From contig CALRBT010000005.1 of the NCBI GenBank assembly GCA_943354475.1, positions 1 through 55,777 on the forward strand: a stretch of DNA of 55,777 nucleotides, read 5' to 3'. Below are positions 20,574-32,394 of this stretch, in pieces (position 1 is the stretch's first letter; each line of letters starts with the position of its first letter). The translations under genes were made by a program, and so were the position numbers. The notes below the pieces were generated by a model. It searched no databases and was not told the origin of the DNA. It saw only the letters and a program-made list of their open reading frames with translations. The stretch comes from Parcubacteria group bacterium. Lineage in GTDB: Bacteria; Patescibacteriota; Minisyncoccia; Phycocordibacterales; CALRBT01.

Positions 20574-21167
20574 TTACAGATGACTCTCACGTAATGACTG
20601 ATTGATTTCAAAAAGCGCCTTCTCGTGACAAGTATTCATTTCATCAATAAGTATCCGATTAAAATGAGTAGCCTGTACGAATCGATCTAGCTCATTATTT
20701 GGCGCAAAGTAACCTAGATGATACAGAATCTTCATAATCATAATGTATTCAAAATTTCGCAATTCATCTTTTGAAAACATCTCTAGACTTAAAAAATCCA
20801 AACTACTTTCAAGGAGTGCGTACAGTTCAATCTGAGGTTCTTCTCCGTGAAGTAAACGTCGGAGTAGCGTAAAAAAGCGAACGATGAGCAGCCGCTCCTC
20901 TCGCCTTGTCTCAAAATTCTTCCAGACACTATCTGGATTACCTGCATTAATTAAGCGCCAGATTTCCTTGCCTCGGACCAATGAGACATCACTCTGACAA
21001 TAGTCCTGCAGAGAAAATCTCAGTTTTGATTTCAGATGTCTCGCTCCGGTCGCTTGGGCACTAAGAAGGCCGAACTCTTTGGTAAAGATGGTGAGAAAAC
21101 GATTTGCTTCGCCGGAGTTGGTTCCTGAGAGGATAAATGCCTTGGTATGGTAAATATGCCTGGACAT
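20574..21167 (-). CDS. recO: DNA repair protein RecO (short)
   Basis: GEANRFLTIFTKEFGLLSAQATGARHLKSKL OB-fold N-terminus. Confidence 0.88.
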   Translation of the reverse strand: MSRHIYHTKAFILSGTNSGEANRFLTIFTKEFGLLSAQATGARHLKSKLRFSLQDYCQSDVSLVRGKEIWRLINAGNPDSVWKNFETRREERLLIVRFFTLLRRLLHGEEPQIELYALLESSLDFLSLEMFSKDELRNFEYIMIMKILYHLGYFAPNNELDRFVQATHFNRILIDEMNTCHEKALFEINQSLRESHL

Positions 21168-24100
21168 TACATCAATGTAACTTTGAACACGAAATCTCCA
21201 ACAAGAATTTCCCCACCGTCATTATCCCCATACTCAACAGCACTTGCTAATACCGTCCTTTTAATCTGTTCTTCAAATTTTTTCAACAATAATTGTCCCT
21301 CTTCTGTAGTGACAATTAACAACTTAACTTTATCATTTGGATTTAATCCTTTCTGCTTTCGCAATTCCTGAATTCCTCGAGTGAATTCACGGACATCTCC
21401 TTCCTCTTTAAGCTCTGGGGTAATTGTTACATCTAAGAAAACTGTGCGGTCTAATCCCTCACCACCAAAGGAAATATGTTTAACATTTAACTCATCTTTT
21501 ATTAACTCTAGCAATGCTTCATTTCCTTTTAGCGCTTGATTGTAGATCGTTAATTCCCCGAGTGGCTGCCTGACAACAATCTTTGCTCGCGATCTCGCCT
21601 CAAGTCCCAGTGTTACTAACTCTCTGACTTGCTTCATTTCATCAACAATATCAATCTTAAGATTTAATTTTGACTCTGGCCAACTAGCTAAGTGCACACT
21701 CTCGACCTCATCTTCAGTCTTAAGCTCAAGATAAAGATACTCAGCAAAGAATGGCATAGACGGTGCCATCAATTTTGCATACTCCTTGAGCACAAATTGT
21801 AGCGTACTCAAGGCTTTCTGTTTGTCCGCCAAATCATCGCCCTTGAGTCGATCCCTTGATCTGCGCAAATACCACACCGAAAGATCATCAACGAAAGCCA
21901 TCAGTGGTCTTGTCGCCCTATCTAGTTCATAAACCTCCATACCAGAGGTGACTTCGAGAATGAGTTGGTTGAGTCTTACTAATATCCAACGATCAAGGAC
22001 ATTATCTGATGTGTCTGAGGCGTCAACTGAAGCATCTTTGTAGAGCTTGTAAAACGAGAGAACGTTATCGAGCTTGCCAATAACCTTGTTAGCGGCTTCG
22101 GCAACCCCCTTCTCAAAGAAGTTAAGGTCTTCTGATTTCATCAATTGAGACGAGAGAAGATAATACCTCATCGCGTCAACTCCATATTTATCAAAAAGAA
22201 GTTGTGGATCAGGAAAATTATTTTTAGACTTAGACATTTTCTGACCATCTTCAGCAAGAATTGTTCCTGTAGTTACCACATTCTTAAACGACACCTTATC
22301 GAAAAGTAGTACAGAGAGGGTGTGTAGGTAATAGAACCACGTGCGTGTTTGTGCTATATACTCCGCGATAAAGTCAGCTGGGAAGTTATCATGGAACCAT
22401 TCCTTCCTCTCGAACGGATAATGATTGGCGGCAAATGGCATTGCACCCGACTCAAACCAACAATCAAAGACTTCTGGAGTTCTCGTCATGTCGCCTCCAC
22501 AGTCACAGCTAAGTGATACCTCATCGATATAAGGTCGGTGAAGATCTAGCTCATAATTTCCATTGTGTGGACGCACAGTAAATGACAGCAGTTGAATTTC
22601 ACCATTCTTGATAAAGTCACCATCTTTGCCCCACAACTCTATTGCCTTTTGAGCATCAAGTGCAGCTGCAACAGCCTGTATAAGCCAGCCAACGTATTCG
22701 TGTCCAACAATTAAAATATTTTTGTTTTTGTACTTTGTGTCTATTTCATAAAGAAATTCTCCGAGTCGCTTTTTCATTTGGAGAAGATTCTCTCCTCCTT
22801 CTGGTACTTTTGTAAATCGCTCCTCGTAATCTTTGAAGAAATTATGGTACTCGTCAACTGACTTTCCATCAAACTCACCGGTATTGATTTCACTCAAACG
22901 ACTATCGGTAACGACAGAGTCAGTCTCCAGACCTAATTCTCTTGCAACAATTTCTGCCGTCTCTTGGGTGCGCAAAAACGGAGAGACAAAAACCATATCA
23001 ATCTTTTTCTCTTTGAGAAGAGCGCTTGATTCGAGCACTTGTTCCTTCCCTTTTTCTGTAAGATGAGCGACTCCGGGAGTTTTTGAATCAACGACTTTTT
23101 TTACATTACTTTCAGCTTCGCCATGTCGCATTACAAAATATTGATTACCAGTCTTCCTAGTCAGGTCTCCGAGTTCATCAACAGAGGCGACGAATATTTG
23201 TTTGTGACAGGATGCACACCTCCAAATTGGTAATGGGGATGCCCAATAACGATTTCTTGAAATATTCCAGTCAGGTGCTCCTTGAACAATATTTTTAAAA
23301 CGCCCCTCCTTTAGATGTCCTGGTACCCAGTTTATCTTTTCATTAAGTCCTACTATGTTTTCCTTCTTCTTATTTACAGCCACAAACCATGCTGGAATTG
23401 CATAGTAATAAAGCGGTGTCTCACACCTAAAACAGTGTGGATATGAGTGAATGATCTTTTCTTTTGCAAAAAGATATCCTCGATGCGCAAGACTTTTTAT
23501 TATCTCAATATCAGTTCTCTGATGATCATCCTTGGGTTTAATCAGTAATCCTTTAAAATCAACAACTTCGTCTTTGAAACGTCCATCGTCCCCGACATGC
23601 CAAACAATGGGAATGTTTTTTTCCTTTGCAAGTTCCATATCTTCTTCCCCGTATGCTGGAGCTAGGTGCACAATTCCTGTCCCACTATCATCTGCAACAT
23701 ACGGAGCACTGTACACCTTCCAGGCATTTTCTTTATTTGGAAAGTTCTTGTCTAGAAAATAATCAAAAACTGGCTTGTACGATTTTCCTACGATCTCTTT
23801 ACCCTTGAATGTACTGACAATATTTGCGCCGTCAGGAAACACTTTATCAAGTAGTTTCTTACCAACAATGTACATTCCACCATCAGCTGAGACTTTCACA
23901 TATTCAATTTCTTCACCAACAGCGGCCGCCATATTTCCTGGAAGTGTCCACGGAGTAGTCGTCCACGCCAAGAGATAGGTTCCTGGTTCATCAACCAATT
24001 CAAATTTAACGGTTACTGAAATATCTGTAATATCCTTATAACTATTATCCATAGCAATTTCAGAATTTGCTATAGGTGTTTCGCAACGAGGGCAGTATGG

Positions 24101-24652
24101 CAATACTCTTGTTCCTTCATAGACTAGTCCTTTTTTGTTTAGCTCGCCAAGAGCATACCAAACTGACTCTATATACGAGTTATCCATTGTTTTGTATGAG
24201 CCATCAAAATCAACCCATCTACCCATTCTGTCAACGGTTTTTTTCCAATCGTGAACAAAGGTTAACACCTTACTTCGAGCGTAATCATTAAACTTTCCAA
24301 TGCCATAAGCTTCAATTTCTTTTTTCCCAGAAATTTTTAAATCTTTCTCAACAATATTTTCTATAGGTAGCCCGTGGCAATCCCATCCCCAACGACGTTC
24401 GACATATTTACCTCGCATTGTTTGATAACGTGGAACGGCATCTTTAATAGTACTGGCCAGAATGTGTCCATAGTGAGGCAACCCTGTAGCGAATGGTGGA
24501 CCATCATAAAAAACGTAAGAATTCTGAGGATCATTTTTCTTAAGCGACTTTTCAAAAATCTTGTTATCATCCCAAAATTTCAAAATCTCCTCCTCCCGCA
24601 GAGCGCCAGCGCTTTTCTCCACTTTTTCTGTTTGGTCTTTATTTTGAGCCAT
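21167..24652 (-). CDS. ileS: Isoleucine--tRNA ligase (type 2) with inserted histidine-phosphatase domain
   Basis: DGPPFATGLPHYGH, GWDCHGLP, WTTTPWTLP, DWNISRNRYW, QTRTWFY, KMSKS; insertion carries RHGE..SPFLRTQETA..GH. Confidence 0.96.
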   Translation of the reverse strand: MAQNKDQTEKVEKSAGALREEEILKFWDDNKIFEKSLKKNDPQNSYVFYDGPPFATGLPHYGHILASTIKDAVPRYQTMRGKYVERRWGWDCHGLPIENIVEKDLKISGKKEIEAYGIGKFNDYARSKVLTFVHDWKKTVDRMGRWVDFDGSYKTMDNSYIESVWYALGELNKKGLVYEGTRVLPYCPRCETPIANSEIAMDNSYKDITDISVTVKFELVDEPGTYLLAWTTTPWTLPGNMAAAVGEEIEYVKVSADGGMYIVGKKLLDKVFPDGANIVSTFKGKEIVGKSYKPVFDYFLDKNFPNKENAWKVYSAPYVADDSGTGIVHLAPAYGEEDMELAKEKNIPIVWHVGDDGRFKDEVVDFKGLLIKPKDDHQRTDIEIIKSLAHRGYLFAKEKIIHSYPHCFRCETPLYYYAIPAWFVAVNKKKENIVGLNEKINWVPGHLKEGRFKNIVQGAPDWNISRNRYWASPLPIWRCASCHKQIFVASVDELGDLTRKTGNQYFVMRHGEAESNVKKVVDSKTPGVAHLTEKGKEQVLESSALLKEKKIDMVFVSPFLRTQETAEIVARELGLETDSVVTDSRLSEINTGEFDGKSVDEYHNFFKDYEERFTKVPEGGENLLQMKKRLGEFLYEIDTKYKNKNILIVGHEYVGWLIQAVAAALDAQKAIELWGKDGDFIKNGEIQLLSFTVRPHNGNYELDLHRPYIDEVSLSCDCGGDMTRTPEVFDCWFESGAMPFAANHYPFERKEWFHDNFPADFIAEYIAQTRTWFYYLHTLSVLLFDKVSFKNVVTTGTILAEDGQKMSKSKNNFPDPQLLFDKYGVDAMRYYLLSSQLMKSEDLNFFEKGVAEAANKVIGKLDNVLSFYKLYKDASVDASDTSDNVLDRWILVRLNQLILEVTSGMEVYELDRATRPLMAFVDDLSVWYLRRSRDRLKGDDLADKQKALSTLQFVLKEYAKLMAPSMPFFAEYLYLELKTEDEVESVHLASWPESKLNLKIDIVDEMKQVRELVTLGLEARSRAKIVVRQPLGELTIYNQALKGNEALLELIKDELNVKHISFGGEGLDRTVFLDVTITPELKEEGDVREFTRGIQELRKQKGLNPNDKVKLLIVTTEEGQLLLKKFEEQIKRTVLASAVEYGDNDGGEILVGDFVFKVTLM

Positions 24653-25046: not shown

Positions 25047-25475
25047 CTACTTCCCCGAACTTCCAAATCCTCGCTCACCACGAACACTCTCTTCAAGTTC
25101 CAAGACTTCTACAATCTCTACTTCTTCAGATTTTTGAATAATCATTTGTGCCACCTTTTCTCCTTTTTTGAATGTATGGGTAACTTTTGAAAGATTAATA
25201 ATCCCTACCAACACCTCACCTCGATATCCGGAATCAACCACACCCCCAAGCGTCTTTAGTCCATTCTTGATTGCAAGTCCGCTCTTATCCCAAATAAGTC
25301 CCACATATCCAAAGGGAACTTCCACCGCCAAACCGGTGGCAATCCCCTTGCGCTCGCCTGGCTCTATGACCACATCTTCACGACTTAGCAAATCAAATGC
25401 GGCATCTCCTATATAAGCATAGGTCGGTAGTGGCAACTCTTTATCTAACCTTTTTATTTTTAAAACCAGATTCAT
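25047..25475 (-). CDS. dut: dUTP diphosphatase (trimeric)
   Basis: AAFDL, KSGLA, GVVDSGYRGE, AQMI, RGERGFGSSG. Confidence 0.97.
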   Translation of the reverse strand: MNLVLKIKRLDKELPLPTYAYIGDAAFDLLSREDVVIEPGERKGIATGLAVEVPFGYVGLIWDKSGLAIKNGLKTLGGVVDSGYRGEVLVGIINLSKVTHTFKKGEKVAQMIIQKSEEVEIVEVLELEESVRGERGFGSSGK

Positions 25476-26665
25476 TATTTTTTCTTACTCATTTCTTTTC
25501 GCAAAATCACGTCAATCTTCTCCGCAATCTTTTTCATATCCTTTTCTTTCTTCCCACGAGTTGTCTCAGCAGGAGTTCCAATTCTGATTCCTGAAGGATC
25601 CATCGGGCTACGGGTATCAAAGGGAATCGTGTTTTTATTGACAATAATGTCGTTTTTCTCTAACACATCCGTTGCGTCCTTACCGCCAATCCCCTTTCCA
25701 TCCATCCAAGTATCAACCAAGATCAAGTGACTGTCCGTCCCCCCTGAGACAATACGCCAGCCGAGTCCTGCCAAGCTCGCTGACAGTTCTTTGGCATTGG
25801 CAATAATCTGCTTTGCATAAATCTTAAATGCTGGAGTTGCTGCTTCTCCGAGCGCGACTGCGACCGCTGCAATCTGATTTAAATGTGGACCACCCTGCAT
25901 ACCAGGGAAAATTGCTTTATCAATCAAGATATCGATATTCCTTGAATCTTTCTTTGAGAAAATTAGGGCACTGCGTGGACCGCGCAATGTCTTGTGTACG
26001 GTAGTCATCACCACATCAGCGTATGGAAACGGCGATGGATAAACACCACCTGCAACCAAACCACCCAAGTGCGACATATCAACGAGTAGGTATGCTCCCA
26101 CTGAATCTGCAATTTCTCTAAATTTTTTAAAATCAATCTTGCGTGGATAGGCAGTAAATCCTGCGACAATGATATCTGGTTTATGCTCAAGAGCTATTTT
26201 CGAAATCTCCTCGTAATTAATTACTTCTGTTTTTTTATCGACACCGTAAGGAACCTGCTTCCAGAATTTACCCGTTATTGAAACCTTGTGTCCGTGCGTA
26301 AGATGCCCGCCGTGATCGAGACTCATTCCCATAATCTTGCCGCCAGTCGGCACGAGTGCGAGATAAACTGCGACGTTTGCAGGAGAGCCAGAGAGTGCTT
26401 GTACGTTAACCGCCCAACTGTTCGGAGAGAGCTTAAAGAGTTTCAGAGCTCTCGCCTTTGCCAAGTCCTCCACTTTGTCCGTCACGGAGTTGCCCGCATA
26501 GTAACGTTTGTGCGGATAGCCTTCAGCATATTTGTTGGTAAGCTCGGAGCCAAGAGCTTGAAGTACATCTCTCGAGACGTAATTCTCTGACGCAATGAGA
26601 TTAATCACCTTCTTTGAGCGAGCTGATTCTTCTTTGATTAATTTTTCGATTTGTTTGTCTTTCAT
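25475..26665 (-). CDS. glyA: Serine hydroxymethyltransferase
   Basis: LIASEN, NKYAEGYP, GGHLTHG, TTVHKTLRGPR; start trimmed to ATG 26665. Confidence 0.98.
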   Translation of the reverse strand: MKDKQIEKLIKEESARSKKVINLIASENYVSRDVLQALGSELTNKYAEGYPHKRYYAGNSVTDKVEDLAKARALKLFKLSPNSWAVNVQALSGSPANVAVYLALVPTGGKIMGMSLDHGGHLTHGHKVSITGKFWKQVPYGVDKKTEVINYEEISKIALEHKPDIIVAGFTAYPRKIDFKKFREIADSVGAYLLVDMSHLGGLVAGGVYPSPFPYADVVMTTVHKTLRGPRSALIFSKKDSRNIDILIDKAIFPGMQGGPHLNQIAAVAVALGEAATPAFKIYAKQIIANAKELSASLAGLGWRIVSGGTDSHLILVDTWMDGKGIGGKDATDVLEKNDIIVNKNTIPFDTRSPMDPSGIRIGTPAETTRGKKEKDMKKIAEKIDVILRKEMSKKK

Positions 26666-26710
26666 GGGAAATTTCGTTAGCCTTGATTGGCTAGATAATA
26701 CCATAAAATT

Positions 26711-26766: not shown

Positions 26767-27183
26767 CTAGGTTGTTGTTTCAGAATCCAGTCCGAGGTCT
26801 TTTTCGAGTGCGATGAGCTCGGATACGGTCTCTGCCAAACGATCATTCAGATTAGCTGCTTCGGCTTCAAGTTCTGACTTTTGTCTTAGTAGTTCCATAT
26901 GTCTGTTCAACTTAACCGTGCGTTCTTTGCGCAAATTACGACTAGCTCCTCGTAGAGCCTTAATCCAATCTGATGCGAGACCGTCAGGAGGACACTCCCG
27001 CAAAAGATCTTCCGCCGATAAAGTGTTTTCTTCTGTTTTTGGAACTTCGTCGCAAGCATCCATTGCGAACTCGACGCACTCATTACAAATAAAGACCGTC
27101 GGCCCAGCGATGAGTTTACTCACTTTTTCCCCGGACTTGTCACAGAATGAGCAATGCAGTGTATCCTTGGCGAAGTGTGCCAT
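26767..27183 (-). CDS. Stand-alone ClpX C4-type zinc-finger protein with coiled-coil tail
   Basis: [22 protein letters not shown] matches the ClpX ZBD; no AAA+ domain; GGAGGA SD upstream. Confidence 0.85.
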
Positions 27184-27292: not shown

Positions 27293-28195
27293 ATGAAGCA
27301 CGACCTCAAACTCAAAAATGTCCTCTCAATGAAAGAGTTGGAAAAAAGTATGCGTAATATTGTGTTTCGAGGACTCTATAACAAAGCGGGTGAGAAAATA
27401 AAGCCCTATGAAAACGCTACATTTAGTCTAGCCAAAGTCCACCCACCCAAAGCCATCGGTATACCTGCCGAGGTACGCATTGGTTCAAAGCGAGAGTTTC
27501 TCTTTACCCCACAGCCGACGGTCTATCAAAACCAAATCGAAATAATGGAGACTGTTGACGATTTTCTTAAAACAAAAGGGATGACGCTCACCAACCTTAA
27601 AGGAGCGGTTGAATATTCATGGGAGGGACGAGGAGATTTTCACATCCTTCCACCAATCATTGAAAAACATACTTACGATCTCAAGGAAGGCTTTATTAAC
27701 CTTGAGAAGCTCTCTTCTCGTTTTGGCGGAATGTACGTTCGTGATGCACGAGGAAACATGCACCATCTCTCGGACAGGGAGTTACATGGATTCTATATTG
27801 ATGAAGTAAGCAACCTCAGCTCACTTGAGGTATTTAACTCCAACGCACCACTCATCAACTACGGACTGCCTTATAGCGGAGAACATGACTTCTATATCAT
27901 TTGTGATGGAACACACCGCATTGACTACGCACTTGAGAAGTTAAACAAACCAATCACCGTCATCTTGGTTGAACCAAAAGTAAAATCAAAGCCTCTCATC
28001 CCCTACTACGCGTTCCCCGTACCCCTTCGTCCCACCATCAGACTCTCGAGTAAAAAAGCAGAGAAAATGTTTTACCGACTTGAACGGGACAAAATCCATT
28101 TACTCAACGATTACATTAAAAAGACACTTCACTATGATTGGGAAATTGTAGGGTTACAGGTTAGTAAGTTACGAAGCAATGTCGAAATTTTTTAA
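27293..28195 (+). CDS. Hypothetical protein with ParB/sulfiredoxin-like catalytic motif
   Basis: ILPPIIE...YIICDGTHRIDYA resembles the ParB/Srx DGxHR motif. Confidence 0.6.
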   Translation: MKHDLKLKNVLSMKELEKSMRNIVFRGLYNKAGEKIKPYENATFSLAKVHPPKAIGIPAEVRIGSKREFLFTPQPTVYQNQIEIMETVDDFLKTKGMTLTNLKGAVEYSWEGRGDFHILPPIIEKHTYDLKEGFINLEKLSSRFGGMYVRDARGNMHHLSDRELHGFYIDEVSNLSSLEVFNSNAPLINYGLPYSGEHDFYIICDGTHRIDYALEKLNKPITVILVEPKVKSKPLIPYYAFPVPLRPTIRLSSKKAEKMFYRLERDKIHLLNDYIKKTLHYDWEIVGLQVSKLRSNVEIF

Positions 28196-28377
28196 ATTCG
28201 TACATTTGGCGCATTTCTTTCAGCAGAAAGACCTCATTGAGCACAATGACCTACTGGGTACTTGGTCGTGTCGCTTCACTCATTTGCTCCCGCAGAGTAG
28301 ATTCACCTACACTTTGGTCGCAAGCTTCGTTCACTCCTCTTTTAGCAAAAAGACCTACCCGGTAGAACTGCATCCAA

Positions 28378-29268
28378 ATGAACAAATTTAATGAACAAAT
28401 TTTGCAGAAATTACAAAAAGGTTTGTCTCTTTCTGTAGTTAAAAAAGCAAACGCTCAAAATAACAGCGTTTCAATTGCAATCTCTACATCAGGTAAATCG
28501 TACCTCGGAGGTAAGATTGAATCAGACACCAACCTTCTCGACATTAGTTCGGAACATTCTGCTTTAGCACTGGCTCTAGCCCATCGTGATTATAAGATTG
28601 AACAAGTAATCACCTTGGTCGAAAATGATAGCGTTATCATTTCTCCTCTCATACTGAAGATACTCGTGGACTTTGGTATCCGAACCAAAAAACCTGTACG
28701 ATATATCGTACAAAATAAAAGCGGGCAAATTTTATTTAAGACAAATGATTCGCAAAAAGAAATTCCTTTTTATAAACCAGTCAAACAGATACTAACACTG
28801 TCCAACAAAAAGCTTGTTCATAATTTTAAACAAATTGATCCAAAACTTAGTAAAAAAATACTAGTCGATGAGTTAAGGAAGTTAGCTCTCGTAGGACTCG
28901 AAAGCGCCTTCACCACTAAAGATGGTTCCAGTCGCTACGGCGTCGCCGTAGCGACTGGAAGTGGCAAGGTCTATTTTGCCGGACAATACTCTTCACCTGA
29001 TAAAAGACTTGGACTCCATGGTGAGGTTTCTGCCACACTCACCGCCCTAATGAAGGGTGAGCGAGCAATTACCCATATTGCAATTGTTTCTGACAAGTTT
29101 CCAGACACACCAGCATTGATATGTGGTTGTTGCAGACAATGGCTCAGTGAATTAGCTCTGAAATTCAAATGGAATCTCCATATAATTTGTTTTGCAAAAA
29201 TGAACTCTAGTTATACTATGGATACTATAGAATCATTGCTCCCAAGGGCATGGTCAAGTAAAACATAG
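28378..29268 (+). CDS. Tandem cytidine-deaminase-fold protein (N-terminal domain degenerate, C-terminal domain with Zn ligands)
   Basis: C-terminal GVAVATGSGKVYFAG..LHGE..ICGCCRQWLSE; N-terminal repeat has SSEHSA..ISPLILK in place of the Zn ligands. Confidence 0.85.
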   Translation: MNKFNEQILQKLQKGLSLSVVKKANAQNNSVSIAISTSGKSYLGGKIESDTNLLDISSEHSALALALAHRDYKIEQVITLVENDSVIISPLILKILVDFGIRTKKPVRYIVQNKSGQILFKTNDSQKEIPFYKPVKQILTLSNKKLVHNFKQIDPKLSKKILVDELRKLALVGLESAFTTKDGSSRYGVAVATGSGKVYFAGQYSSPDKRLGLHGEVSATLTALMKGERAITHIAIVSDKFPDTPALICGCCRQWLSELALKFKWNLHIICFAKMNSSYTMDTIESLLPRAWSSKT

Positions 29269-31701
29269 ATGCCAAATAACACACTTCCATTTCCAATCGT
29301 CGACGCTCTCCTTCTGACTCCAAAAGAGGCCGATTCTGGAGCACTTGGTATCTGTACTAATACTTCAGCACCTGGACAAGTCTACAATGAGATCGAAGAA
29401 GAACAACGACCTTTTGTCTCGGTCATTGGTTCACTGATCGTTAGCCGCGATGGAACCGAGCGTATGATCTTAAACACACTAGCTCACCCATCGGTGCGCT
29501 ATATCATCCTCTTCTCCGAAGAGTCCCTCACTTTCTCACCAAGTACCAACCTCCTGTTAGCTCTCCAAAATGGTGTCAATTTCGAAGCTTCCGGAAACTA
29601 CATCAAAGACGGTAAGGCTGCCTCAGCACATTATCCAAATCTTTCGGCAAAAATCATTGATGCGTTTCGCGAGAATATTACCGTCATTCCACTCTTTATG
29701 TATCGAAATGATTATTCAAGACCTGTTGTACTTGAGTACTTAGAGTGGTTACGGCCAAAAATTAATGACGAGATTTACGAATTCCTCAAAGAAACCACGA
29801 CCAAAAAATCAATCTACTATGATAGTTTGAATGCACTAATTGCGCTCCTTAGTAAACTACCAAAAAAAGATAAGCCTTTTATCGACCTCGACCCCAAAGA
29901 ATTCCAGCATCTACAACCACCAAAAATAGAACTGTCAGCGGAAGATTTGACGGTGTCTGTACCATTTAAAGTTTCAAAAGAAAAAGAATTAATCCGTCTT
30001 GATATCGCTATCGAAGACAAAACATACTATCTCAAAGGTAAAAGTGAGTTCTTGATGGAATACTCTTTAATGAAATTTATTGGTGATGATAAAAAATTTA
30101 TCTCCCCACTCGAGCAACTACTTCTCGGCGCCGAACTTGCACGAGTCGATACCGAAATCAAAAACAAGATAGAAATAAAAACAAGGGTCCATTATGCTGA
30201 TATAACTGGGGCAATTGAAATTCCTCTTGAATCAAACACATCACTGATTACCGACAAACGCTTTTACTATAAAGTTAGTGTGCGGGAGCAAGATATCTCT
30301 GTTATGTGTTTAGCCTTTGATGTCTGCGAGGAGGTATTTGAATTACGCTCTCCAACAAACGGCGCGATATTCAACTGGCTCGCGGAGAAAAATCGGTTTG
30401 AGGAGTATGAAATGGATATACTCCATAGAATGGACGTTGGTGGGCAAATAGGAAGGGCTGGGATTGCAGCCAAACTTGGCTTTGCCTTTATTCAAGATTT
30501 TTCGAGTATCTTCAGGATTAACACCGAGGAGCTTCCCTTACTCATATCACAAGGTGATAGTTTTCTTGAAATACATAAAAATATTTTGATGAAAATTTAT
30601 ACCGAAGGACTGACCGAAGAACATGGGGATAAGCAGAAAGGGTTGGCACGAACTGGTATCGCTCTTGCTATCTATCGAGATTCGAAAAATGCGCTCGCTT
30701 CACTACCCGCCTTCTACAAACAAGGTGATCAAAGTACTGAAGAGATGCGCCTTAATTACAAAAAACAGCTCCTTCGTTTTGATCACGATGGTGACTACAG
30801 TTATGGACAACGTACCCGGGCACATTTTGGATTCGACCAACTACCAAAGACAATTGAAATACTAAAGAGTAATCCTAACCACGCTACCGTTATTCAACGA
30901 TTTGATCCAACCGTTGATATGGGAAGTCATATTGTTCCAGAGACTGGTAAACTCAAATATACCCATGACCCATGCCTCACTCATGATATTTTTATTGTCC
31001 ATGGTGGGAAACTTCATTCGTTCCATATTGCCCGTGCACACAATACCGTCAACGCCTATCCTGAAAATATTTTTGGCCTCTTCGATGCTTATGTTACAAC
31101 CATTCGAGAAGAGTTGGGTGTAAAGAGTGGAGATATGTATATGCTTTCAAACCGTGCCAACATCCTCCTTCTAACTGAAGAGCAACGCACCAAGAAAATA
31201 CTAACCGAGCCATCAAAGCCTTCGGATGATATGGATACCGCAAGTGGTCCGTATGAGGTAGGAGAGGATCTGGAGAAAGTTGACGTTGAAGGAGTTGTCG
31301 CCTACAGATTTATAGAGTTACAAGAGAGGCTTGAGAAACCAACAAGCGAATCAGGAAAAAAGATTATTAGTCGATTAGAAAATTTTGAAGGGATAGATAC
31401 AATTGAGCGTGCTGTTAGCTACTACGAGAGTAAGGGAGTGATGCATAACAATCCAGTACTCACCGAATACCAAGCAGGACAACATAGTACTCAGAATAAT
31501 CCCCAAGCTGATCAACTAATCTTTTTCCAAGCAAACACTATGGGAGGAAAACTTCACGCAACTGCAGTATTCGCAAACCGTTCACTAAAAAACATAAATG
31601 ACGATACCGAAACAATAAACTACCTCTCTACCCTCTTTAGTAAACGCCTGAAAGTACCTCTTGGGCACCTATCTCTATTCTACGTAGGCTATACTAAGTA
31701 A
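29269..31701 (+). CDS. MtrA-like / DUF4346 x2 / thymidylate-synthase-like multidomain protein
   Basis: GTERMILNTLAHPSVRYIILFSEE (MtrA-like); HRMDVGGQIGRAGIAAKLGFAFIQD (DUF4346-like); YSYGQR..FDQL..DPCL..RAHN..YPEN (TS fold). Confidence 0.8.
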   Translation: MPNNTLPFPIVDALLLTPKEADSGALGICTNTSAPGQVYNEIEEEQRPFVSVIGSLIVSRDGTERMILNTLAHPSVRYIILFSEESLTFSPSTNLLLALQNGVNFEASGNYIKDGKAASAHYPNLSAKIIDAFRENITVIPLFMYRNDYSRPVVLEYLEWLRPKINDEIYEFLKETTTKKSIYYDSLNALIALLSKLPKKDKPFIDLDPKEFQHLQPPKIELSAEDLTVSVPFKVSKEKELIRLDIAIEDKTYYLKGKSEFLMEYSLMKFIGDDKKFISPLEQLLLGAELARVDTEIKNKIEIKTRVHYADITGAIEIPLESNTSLITDKRFYYKVSVREQDISVMCLAFDVCEEVFELRSPTNGAIFNWLAEKNRFEEYEMDILHRMDVGGQIGRAGIAAKLGFAFIQDFSSIFRINTEELPLLISQGDSFLEIHKNILMKIYTEGLTEEHGDKQKGLARTGIALAIYRDSKNALASLPAFYKQGDQSTEEMRLNYKKQLLRFDHDGDYSYGQRTRAHFGFDQLPKTIEILKSNPNHATVIQRFDPTVDMGSHIVPETGKLKYTHDPCLTHDIFIVHGGKLHSFHIARAHNTVNAYPENIFGLFDAYVTTIREELGVKSGDMYMLSNRANILLLTEEQRTKKILTEPSKPSDDMDTASGPYEVGEDLEKVDVEGVVAYRFIELQERLEKPTSESGKKIISRLENFEGIDTIERAVSYYESKGVMHNNPVLTEYQAGQHSTQNNPQADQLIFFQANTMGGKLHATAVFANRSLKNINDDTETINYLSTLFSKRLKVPLGHLSLFYVGYTK

Positions 31702-31702
31702 T

Positions 31703-32359
31703 ATGTTTGATTTTACGGAAATTAAAGTCATCGGGTTTGATCTCGATCAAACCCTCTACGAGAAGTCGCACGAAGTGGATGCTGAAATTCAAAGCTATAT
31801 CTATGAGAAAATTTCCACACAAAAAAAATGTTCTCTTGAAGAGGCTGAGCTTCTTTTCTCTGGTTTATATAAAAACGGTCGTGGTTTAAGTGGTAGCAAA
31901 ACTCTAGAAACCTTGGGAGTTCCAAACGCAGGTGAGGTAGTGCAAGAAGCCCTCGAATTTGCAAACATTGCTTCAGTTTTAGTTCCAAATAAGGCAACGA
32001 TTTCTCTGCTAAAAAATATAAAAGAAACCTATAAAAATATTGACCTGCTTACTGGTTCAAATGACTCAAATGCATCTATAAAACTTGCGAAGCTAAATAT
32101 TGGTAAAGAAATCTTTGGTACAATCTTTACCGCAGACAATGCTTCAAAATCAGATGGTTCGATGTATAAACTTTGGTTGGATACCTATGATTTTCCAGCA
32201 GAGAAATTCCTCTATATTGGTGACCGTCCAATGAGTGACTATGAGATTCCAAAAAAATACGGGATTAAAAGTATTTTAGTAAATGTTAAGGAGCAAGACC
32301 CTTCGATTGATTGTTTACAGTTAAAAAATCTATCTGACTTAAATCAGTATCTCCTCTAA
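31703..32359 (+). CDS. HAD-superfamily hydrolase (nucleotidase-like)
   Basis: GFDLDQTLY motif I, LLTGS motif II, YIGDRPMSD motif IV. Confidence 0.92.
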   Translation: MFDFTEIKVIGFDLDQTLYEKSHEVDAEIQSYIYEKISTQKKCSLEEAELLFSGLYKNGRGLSGSKTLETLGVPNAGEVVQEALEFANIASVLVPNKATISLLKNIKETYKNIDLLTGSNDSNASIKLAKLNIGKEIFGTIFTADNASKSDGSMYKLWLDTYDFPAEKFLYIGDRPMSDYEIPKKYGIKSILVNVKEQDPSIDCLQLKNLSDLNQYLL

Positions 32360-32366
32360 AACACCT

Positions 32367-32394
32367 ACGGCCGAACCTTACTTGGTTCGGCCGT
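32367..32394. terminator. Hairpin ending the deaminase/TS-like operon
   Basis: acggccgaacc-ttactt-ggttcggccgt. Confidence 0.8.

Follow-up and report, generated by a model that had tools for sequence, protein, structure and literature searches.

A putative thymidylate-supply operon built around a thymidylate synthase-fold fusion protein in CPR bacteria and DPANN archaea

Results

Four clustered genes probably form a thymidylate-supply module

On contig CALRBT010000005.1 of a Parcubacteria group bacterium (GenBank assembly GCA_943354475.1; positions 1 to 55,777, the whole stretch of 55,777 nucleotides being referred to as the window) an operon of four genes was studied that encodes a ParB/Srx-like protein, a tandem cytidine deaminase (CDA)-like protein, an 810-aa fusion protein with a thymidylate synthase (TS) fold and a HAD-IA phosphatase. 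The sequence analyses indicate that these genes probably constitute a self-contained thymidylate-supply module, which would replace the dCTP/dCMP deaminase, ThyA plus dihydrofolate reductase (DHFR) or ThyX, and often the thymidylate kinase Tmk. The operon is conserved, its carriers are without the standard enzymes, and the chromosomal slot it occupies is the one where relatives of the same order keep them. Thymidylate supply is the most likely function because ThyA, ThyX and DHFR are missing from the carriers and the same slot holds these enzymes in relatives. The genes are arranged as follows.

27293-28195, plus strand: gene 1, ParB/Srx-like, open reading frame (ORF) of 300 aa
28378-29268, plus strand: gene 2, tandem CDA-like, ORF of 296 aa
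29269-31701, plus strand: gene 3, fusion protein, ORF of 810 aa
31703-32359, plus strand: gene 4, HAD-IA phosphatase, ORF of 218 aa

In an initial annotation of this DNA the four genes had been described as a plus-strand island in a minus-strand region, the last three of them abutting. The ORF coordinates and flanking strands agree with this: every flanking gene of the operon lies on the minus strand, the end of gene 2 (29268) directly abuts the start of gene 3 (29269), and a single base separates the end of gene 3 (31701) from the start of gene 4 (31703). In the window 182 nt separate genes 1 and 2; at related loci this distance is mostly -38 to +9 nt. The GC content of the operon is not atypical.

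The operon fills the slot of the thymidylate genes in same-order relatives

Synteny was the line of evidence given most weight. Two operon-free genomes of the same order, G211 and G143, have retained the arrangement nusG-L11-[slot]-glyA-ileS, and dut was found in G211 only. In the slot, G211 has dCTP deaminase (DCD), DHFR and ThyA, and G143 has a DCD-like gene together with a tandem ThyX and Tmk; in the window the same position is filled by the four-gene operon. Judged from gene order, this is a non-orthologous displacement of the whole deoxycytidine-to-thymidine nucleotide module. For a third genome of this order (G178) the search for the slot with the L11 protein as query gave no match.

The carriers are without the standard thymidylate enzymes

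The source genome (786 kb, 98.23% complete) contains FolD, serine hydroxymethyltransferase (SHMT, glyA) and dUTPase. Searches of this genome detected no ThyA, ThyX, DHFR, Tmk, PF00383 deaminase or deoxynucleoside kinase, no class I/II or III ribonucleotide reductase (RNR), no thymidine kinase above cut-off and no folate biosynthesis gene; the DCD family was matched by dut itself only. Carriers, represented by 48 of the 55 genomes with a locus, were compared with a phylum sample of 250 Candidate Phyla Radiation (CPR) genomes, the counts of which omit G154. Canonical ThyA was found in one of the 48 carriers, in the form of a fragment at one end of a contig of 5.3 kb, versus 99 of the 250 sampled genomes, and ThyX above cut-off in 1/48 versus 95/250. 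DHFR above cut-off was likewise present in a single carrier (1/48), versus 95 of the 99 canonical-ThyA genomes of the phylum sample, and Tmk above cut-off in 14/48 versus 70 of 101 phylum-sample genomes. A ThyA- or ThyX-family match of any kind occurred in 215 of the 250. The remaining three PF00303 matches among the carriers were not canonical ThyA; two were in ORFs of 814 and 822 aa, which we infer to be the fusion itself, and one in a 416-aa protein. The fusion is rare, being present in 2 of 251 sampled genomes (G000 and G027), both of which are without ThyA, ThyX, DHFR and Tmk.

The proposal of the initial annotation that the operon belongs to a pyrimidine-nucleotide pathway is borne out by these results. 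Its further statement that the product is made "rather than ordinary dTMP synthesis" is not supported, in view of the lack of ThyA, ThyX and DHFR in the carriers and of the thymidylate genes in the slot of G211 and G143.

Two observations on related enzymes were made in the same genomes. The 416-aa protein, encoded at L074 810-2060 (minus strand) in genome G253, combines a partial TS-like part with a SAM (S-adenosylmethionine)-dependent methyltransferase and has an HD-domain YfbR-like 5'-deoxynucleotidase and a CYTH protein as gene neighbours; this may be another pyrimidine-modification set. Many of the ThyX genes of CPR genomes in the phylum sample comprise two domains in tandem within an ORF of 500-600 aa, and some ThyX ORFs of about 787 aa carry a Tmk domain as well, giving Tmk-ThyX-ThyX fusions (examples of tandem or fused ThyX are G063:C1:331399-333597 and G087:C8:21657-23834).

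The four genes are conserved together in CPR bacteria and DPANN archaea

When one genome was scanned for each species, 55 gene 3 loci were obtained, 12 of which are from DPANN archaea, where the gene 3 copies have 41-47% identity. All four genes are present at 42 of the 55 loci, in 41 cases with identical order and strand; the remaining locus (L042) is a circular permutation of the order. Eleven of the 13 incomplete loci end at a contig edge, which leaves L054 and L014 as genuine exceptions, and in 5/5 genomes whose locus was without a ParB-like gene this gene was found on another contig. Among the 44 related loci with enough flank, 41 keep the four genes in one order. Such an arrangement is far beyond chance. 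The operon genes at the related loci mostly overlap or abut, and the protein-representative library contains two natural fusions, P0125 (1111 aa, CDA-like plus gene 3) and P0127 (981 aa, gene 3 plus HAD). At the archaeal loci L037, L045 and L050 the CDA-like and fusion genes are separated by inserts; these are unrelated minus-strand ORFs and were placed outside the system.

In a quick tree, with SH-aLRT support only and a midpoint root, a single branch (SH-aLRT 100) separates archaeal from bacterial copies. Scans of viral contigs with A1, the gene 3 alignment, and A2 revealed no viral relatives, two peptide patterns having been used for each, so that distant ones could escape. The genes do co-occur elsewhere, at the 42 complete loci, so that the lack of co-occurrence named in the initial annotation as refuting its proposal was not observed; the co-occurrence across CPR, archaea and phages that the initial annotation had put forward for examination was found in the first two groups, whereas no phage relatives were found.

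Gene 3 encodes a five-part fusion protein

The model of the 810-aa protein has a pLDDT of 85. It has 176 homologues, the best 120 of which show 50-67% identity, mostly at 99-100% query coverage, and carry CPR names or none, with 'hypothetical' or automatic thymidylate synthase/MtrA labels. The protein is divided as follows.

Residues 5-205 (29281-29883, plus strand): MtrA-fold domain, from structure match
Residues 206-323: stretch between the MtrA-fold and PterinBD-like parts, no fold assigned
Residues ~324-413 (30238-30507, plus strand): PterinBD-DUF4346-like domain, from hhalign and relatives
Residues 422-650 (30532-31218, plus strand): catalytic TS-fold domain (C569, R589, N600), from structure and hhalign
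Residues 658-810 (31240-31698, plus strand): second, degenerate TS-like domain, from Atlas structure search and hhalign

The N-terminal domain superimposes on 5laa_B with Z 16.8 and a root-mean-square deviation (rmsd) of 2.1 over 151 of 159 residues, the next unrelated row having Z 8.4. Its score against PF04208 (MtrA) is below the cut-off of 25 (21 and 23.7 bits), and MtrA was the sole match when the sequence profile of alignment A1 was compared with PDB sequences. MtrA His84 (8q3v, counted from the printed alignment), presumably the corrinoid cobalt ligand, aligns with the invariant F89 of gene 3. Corrinoid-dependent methyl transfer via this domain was set aside, as the ligand His is replaced by an invariant Phe.

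For residues ~324-413, hmmscan found no PF14251 (DUF4346) match in gene 3 itself at E<=10. The region does match the PF14251-positive C-terminus of a related family of about 500 aa (hhalign probability 95.4, E 1.7e-8), and the relatives P0125, P0146, P0152, P0155 and P0170 match PF14251 at the equivalent position with E 4e-13 to 2e-3, P0152 and P0155 being the only two of the five above cut-off. By these relatives and hhalign, the DUF4346 identity is supported only indirectly. With this qualification the domain assignments of the initial annotation (ParB-like, tandem deaminase, MtrA/DUF4346/TS-like fusion and HAD) hold.

The best Foldseek matches of the TS domain are 9iqu and 9iqc (E about 1e-9), its closest solved fold, which is a flavin-binding phage dCMP hydroxylase; Z values are 16.1 for 9iqc, 15.7 for MilA, 14.6 for ThyA 3ix6 (196 residues, rmsd 3.3), 13.8 for the Arabidopsis DHFR-TS 8dae and 11.5 for the T4 dCMP hydroxymethylase. 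Gene 3 matches TIGR03283 with E 7e-15 (55 bits, below the cut-off of 174.55). PF00303 (ThyA) was found neither in gene 3 at E<=0.1 nor by the genome-wide search, and a direct Pfam search with four pieces of gene 3 returned neither a DUF4346 nor a TS match. Comparison of the TS domain with eight canonical CPR ThyA proteins (hhalign probability 87.6) allowed the motifs to be mapped: PPCH of ThyA corresponds to DPC569L, the Arg of YQRS to R589 and PFN to PEN600, and the three residues are invariant in 48 sequences. We take C569 to be the nucleophile Cys, R589 the phosphate-binding Arg (Arg166) and N600 the uracil-specifying Asn (Asn177) of ThyA.

The TS-like assignment of the C-terminal domain comes only from the Atlas structure search, in which it aligned over 146 residues with a cluster of 220-aa archaeal TS (TM 0.77 by query), and from the profile of the ~500-aa family, whose TS core matches residues ~700-804 with an hhalign probability of 96.8 (E 2.3e-10). 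As judged by eye neither Cys nor Arg occurs at the catalytic positions. This domain probably acts as an in-cis pseudo-dimer partner. No mutual similarity among the four gene 3 domains was detected by hhalign.

A family of about 500 aa shares the three domain types

The ~500-aa family (~480-520 aa) combines MtrA, TS and PterinBD-DUF4346 parts, a composition confirmed at 4/4 loci checked:

L059 5631-7064
L060 5169-6698
L061 5028-6596
L062 4441-5931

Gene 3 resembles this family with hhalign probabilities of 98.4 (MtrA), 95.4 (PterinBD) and 99.8 (TS). The MtrA cobalt-ligand His is missing in 14 of 15 of the ~500-aa proteins. The family occurs in 19 of the 250 sampled CPR genomes, only one of which has DHFR, and its genes adjoin Tmk or dCMP deaminase. 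Because these genes are beside Tmk or dCMP deaminase and rarely together with DHFR, the MtrA-like/PterinBD pair is tied to DHFR-free thymidylate synthesis. One Atlas cluster suggests that the family also has cyanobacterial members. No paper on it was found and it appears to be undescribed.

The likeness to gene 3 thus comprises the same three domain families and the occurrence without DHFR. Unlike in gene 3, the PterinBD part is C-terminal instead of ahead of the TS domain, there is no second TS-like domain, and the ThyA-type Ser, Asp, His and Tyr are kept (RS-D and AHiY), which is not the case in the 810-aa family. The ~500-aa genes are also without ParB-like, CDA-like or HAD neighbours and have an ordinary Tmk or dCMP deaminase instead. 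In genome G016 a second TS-like gene of 317 aa (L059 4268-5221, plus strand; partial PF00303 match, E 2.2e-9) adjoins the 477-aa MtrA-TS-PterinBD gene.

Gene 1 is a predicted ParB/Srx-fold NTP-binding enzyme

Gene 1 matches ParB-CE (PF24392) above cut-off (E 2.4e-6, 28 bits, cut-off 23), the match spanning residues 200-244 only, which are profile positions 100-140 of 147. It contains a DGxHR motif (D205, G206, H208, R209) that is invariant in a 41-sequence alignment of orthologues; this Gly-x-x-Arg or GxHR-type motif is presumably a phosphate motif linked to NTP binding. The AlphaFold model (pLDDT 89.4) gave Z>=2 with 10 of 48161 chains, nine of which belong to the ParB/Srx proteins and include sulfiredoxin, SbnI and the free serine kinase. 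Sulfiredoxin, the closest of all, reaches Z 4.5 only, with 84 residues aligned. Foldseek returned no match for the model at E<=1e-3, and phmmer none among PDB sequences at E<=10. No Pfam match to the helix-turn-helix or dimerisation domains of chromosomal ParB was seen, no dedicated test for them having been made. The family has 230 members; the best 120 of these are all of 280-317 aa, and wherever the source names them it is as 'hypothetical protein'.

In PMC12704722, SerK, SbnI and Srx are described as employing the ParB/Srx fold as an ATP-binding module for catalysis. Sulfiredoxin, SerK and SbnI are weak yet consistent structural neighbours of gene 1 and have the GxHR-type motif in common with it, but Z is 3.5-4.5 only and the large beta-rich elaborations of gene 1 are unmatched. 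Gene 1 is predicted to be a strongly elaborated ParB/Srx-fold NTP-binding enzyme that acts as a phosphotransferase or NTPase.

Genes 2 and 4 resemble cytidine deaminases and pyrimidine nucleotidases

The C-terminal half of gene 2 matches TIGR01354 (tetrameric CDA) with E 2.8e-10 (40.5 bits, below the cut-off of 113.65), and residues 184-295 match the Bacillus subtilis CDA (PDB 1ux1) with E 4.9e-7; PF00383 is matched at E 0.098 only. The zinc site in this half is complete, H214, E216, C249 and C252 being invariant in 40 sequences. In the N-terminal half SSE replaces C/HAE, and a CxxC is absent. Because of the Ser at the zinc-ligand position and the missing Cys pair this half is regarded as a pseudo-domain. 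The GCNIEN of the B. subtilis enzyme aligns with AGQYSS of gene 2, so that N-x-E is not kept (Q-Y-S). We take the Asn and Glu of N-x-E to be the ribose-binding residues; since they are altered, the substrate may be a nucleotide and not a plain nucleoside.

Gene 4 matches HAD_2 above cut-off (E 1.2e-9, 39 bits, cut-off 23.8) and has the DxDxT nucleophile motif as DLDQT near the N-terminus of its translation. The models for pyrimidine 5'-nucleotidase TIGR01993 (E 8.3e-11, 42 bits) and YjjG TIGR02254 (E 2.3e-7, 30.5 bits) are matched far under their cut-offs of 142.9 and 159.9, respectively, and YigB weakly (E 0.0028). By these profile matches gene 4 is a HAD-IA phosphatase, with pyrimidine 5'-nucleotidases as the closest named models.

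Boundaries and neighbouring genes

Upstream of the operon lie ileS, dut, glyA and an ORF with a zf-ClpX domain only; downstream a 129-aa ORF is followed by L11, nusG and secE. The features next to the operon are listed below.

25047-25475, minus strand: dut, dUTPase (E 2.3e-28)
25475-26704, minus strand: glyA, SHMT (E 9.8e-159)
32367-32394, no strand assigned: hairpin between the convergent gene 4 (HAD) and 129-aa ORF

The products of dut and glyA would supply dUMP and methylene-tetrahydrofolate, respectively. The operon has dut as a direct neighbour at 18 of the 43 bacterial loci, and glyA at 15. The hairpin that the initial annotation had placed after the unit is indeed present downstream of gene 4, with an 11-bp stem (8 G-C pairs) and a 6-nt loop; its T-run is on the minus-strand side only and a terminator scan scores the minus strand only.

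The zf-ClpX ORF, the 129-aa ORF and a 96-aa ORF beside the operon had a match at 0/55 related loci and were therefore rejected as operon members. The first of these (26767-27183, minus strand, 138 aa) has a ClpX-type C4 zinc finger (E 1.9e-14) and a coiled tail, without AAA+. The 1161-aa IleS (21167-24652, minus strand) carries a His_Phos_1 insert (residues 506-668, E 5.7e-29) within its catalytic core.

Discussion

Proposed route to dTMP

A scheme can be proposed in which the tandem CDA-like protein, with its one live zinc site, would turn a deoxycytidine compound into a deoxyuridine form. The TS domain of gene 3 would then add a C5 one-carbon unit via Cys569 with methylene-tetrahydrofolate from the adjacent SHMT, the second TS-like domain replacing the partner subunit of the ThyA dimer. 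The fused MtrA-like and PterinBD domains may hold or re-reduce the pterin cofactor; because they would handle the pterin, a separate DHFR would be unneeded, as in DHFR-TS fusions or with ThyX. The NTP site of the ParB/Srx fold could belong to a pyrimidine-nucleotide kinase, for instance for dTMP to dTDP in place of Tmk, or to a dCTP-processing NTPase, and the HAD protein could keep the pool balanced or supplied as a pyrimidine nucleotidase or phosphotransferase. Synthesis of dTMP from dUMP and methylene-tetrahydrofolate by gene 3 is thus probable, with indirect support from the lack of ThyA and ThyX in the carriers and from the replacement of these genes in the slot.

Several observations weigh against thymidylate supply as the function of the operon. 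No ThyA, ThyX or DHFR match was obtained for 35 of the 250 sampled CPR genomes, mostly >90% complete, and only 2 of these 35 carry the operon; because most of the genomes that lack the enzymes are without it, the absence of ThyA and ThyX alone is weak evidence. The related genomes in the counts are not independent, and the completeness of the 48 carriers is not given. Tmk is retained by 14/48 carriers, which implies that the role of the ParB-like protein cannot be reduced to replacing Tmk. As no RNR was detected, direct salvage of dTMP by the source organism is possible. It is also hard to see where a nucleotidase would fit in a simple route from dUMP to dTMP. Finally, hhalign places A590, N592, N631 and L633 of the 810-aa family where ThyA has Ser, Asp, His and Tyr, which we take to be Ser167, Asp169, His207 and Tyr209 of Escherichia coli ThyA, binding the dUMP phosphate, folate and the 3'-OH. 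Because these four ligand-binding residues are altered, the substrate form or the chemistry may differ.

Other functions considered

Enzyme sets of hmU and hmC (5-hydroxymethyluracil and 5-hydroxymethylcytosine) phages replace T or C with hydroxymethyl bases, and the TS-like domain could similarly be a hydroxymethylase or other C5 modifier, the operon making a thymidine analogue, for example 5-hydroxymethyl-dUMP, as a partial or full substitute for T in carrier DNA. The deaminase would supply dUMP, the ParB-like protein would phosphorylate the modified nucleotide and HAD would remove dTMP, which gives all four activities a natural role. A hydroxymethylase would be independent of DHFR, in accordance with its presence in a single carrier, the low frequency of Tmk (14/48 versus 70/101) would also fit, the altered A590, N592, N631 and L633 would permit a different chemistry, and the closest solved folds include the non-methylating 9iqu/9iqc dCMP hydroxylase and MilA. 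Against this, the ~500-aa relatives occur without DHFR beside a canonical Tmk, so that loss of DHFR needs no hydroxymethylation; the 14 carriers that retain Tmk have no other TS, as expected for dTMP as product; the Z values of hydroxymethylases and ThyA are <2 apart; and the viral contig scans revealed no phage relatives. To our knowledge no prokaryote has been described in whose genome T is completely replaced. The modified pyrimidine product of the initial annotation is therefore kept as a possible but minority reading, and such a C5 modifier is considered unlikely. Its more specific form, in which the TS-like domain would make a C5-modified deoxyuridylate, the ParB/Srx-fold protein would be a dedicated kinase, HAD would remove dTMP and the carriers would replace their chromosomal thymine like hmU phages, is slightly less likely still.

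Somewhat more improbable than either is the idea that gene 3 alone makes thymidylate while the ParB-like, CDA-like and HAD proteins salvage or remodel its pterin or flavin cofactor through kinase, ring-deamination and phosphatase steps like those of the riboflavin and pterin pathways. Deaminases of the CDA superfamily and phosphatases of the HAD type do work in riboflavin synthesis. In the operon itself, gene 3 has a domain that Pfam calls pterin-binding, gene 4 matches YigB weakly (E 0.0028), gene 2 has not kept the ribose-binding Asn and Glu of CDA, and neither a folate biosynthesis gene nor a DHFR gene was found in the source genome. The best matches of genes 2 and 4, however, are true cytidine deaminases and pyrimidine nucleotidases; in relatives the displaced slot is occupied by DCD, a C-to-U deaminase, and by Tmk instead of by cofactor genes, and the ~500-aa family functions in the absence of the three partner proteins.

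An accessory anti-phage or nucleotide-pool-depletion system, also envisaged in the initial annotation, is very improbable: ParB-CE domains and TS-like or deaminase enzymes are known from phage-host conflict systems, Atlas ParB-CE protein clusters are partly viral (a lead only) and the operon is rare (2/251 sampled genomes), but it occupies a conserved housekeeping slot between L11-nusG and glyA-dut-ileS where thymidylate genes are replaced, its carriers have no other TS, the clean bacterial/archaeal split (SH-aLRT 100) is unlike that of mobile defence islands, and no viral relatives were found in the viral contig scans.

Comparison with known systems

Thymidylate supply, the preferred function, invites comparison with ThyA plus FolA and with DHFR-TS. 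Gene 3 has the TS fold with the catalytic Cys and the equivalents of Arg166 and Asn177, the operon fills the slot of folA-thyA in G211, and, like DHFR-TS of protozoa and plants, gene 3 joins TS to extra cofactor-related domains. Unlike these enzymes it has neither a PF00303 match nor a DHFR domain, the MtrA-like and PterinBD domains being present instead; it contains a degenerate second TS-like domain in cis, has altered equivalents of Ser167, Asp169, His207 and Tyr209, and is accompanied by three obligatory partner genes. With ThyX the operon shares the independence of DHFR and the slot, which ThyX fills in G143, and the two are mutually exclusive (ThyX in 1/48 carriers), but the folds are unrelated, gene 3 combining the fold of ThyA with a nucleophilic Cys.

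Phage deoxypyrimidine-modification sets are represented by those of hmU phages and by the dCMP hydroxymethylase, dCTPase, dNMP kinase and dCMP deaminase of T4. They have the combination of a deaminase, a TS-fold C5 enzyme, nucleotide phosphotransfer and a nucleotidase in common with the operon, and the T4 dCMP hydroxymethylase is among the structural neighbours of gene 3 (Z 11.5). The operon differs in its cellular housekeeping context and in that no viral relatives were found, and the specificity position of gene 3 is Asn and not Asp; Asn at this position presumably sets the uracil type. The system is rated as of the ThyA-fold type with a new architecture and new partners. In the literature search, which did not extend to subscription journals and supplements, no description was found of the operon, of DUF4346/PterinBD or of MtrA-TS fusions, and what was found on ParB-CE concerned unrelated uses only.

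Implications

Thymidylate synthesis has been described with two solutions, ThyA with DHFR and ThyX. A conserved module of four genes, with a five-part TS-fold protein at its centre, appears to take the place of both in situ, and its carriers are ultra-small symbionts of two groups, one bacterial and one archaeal. Confirmation would establish a DHFR-independent ThyA-fold system, assign a metabolic role to the MtrA-like/PterinBD (DUF4346) domain pair for the first time and give the ParB/Srx fold a new enzymatic function within nucleotide metabolism. Should the product not be dTMP, this would suggest the existence of cellular organisms with modified chromosomal DNA. Confirmation of thymidylate supply would, in turn, correct the metabolic reconstructions in which these genomes are scored as thymidylate auxotrophs.

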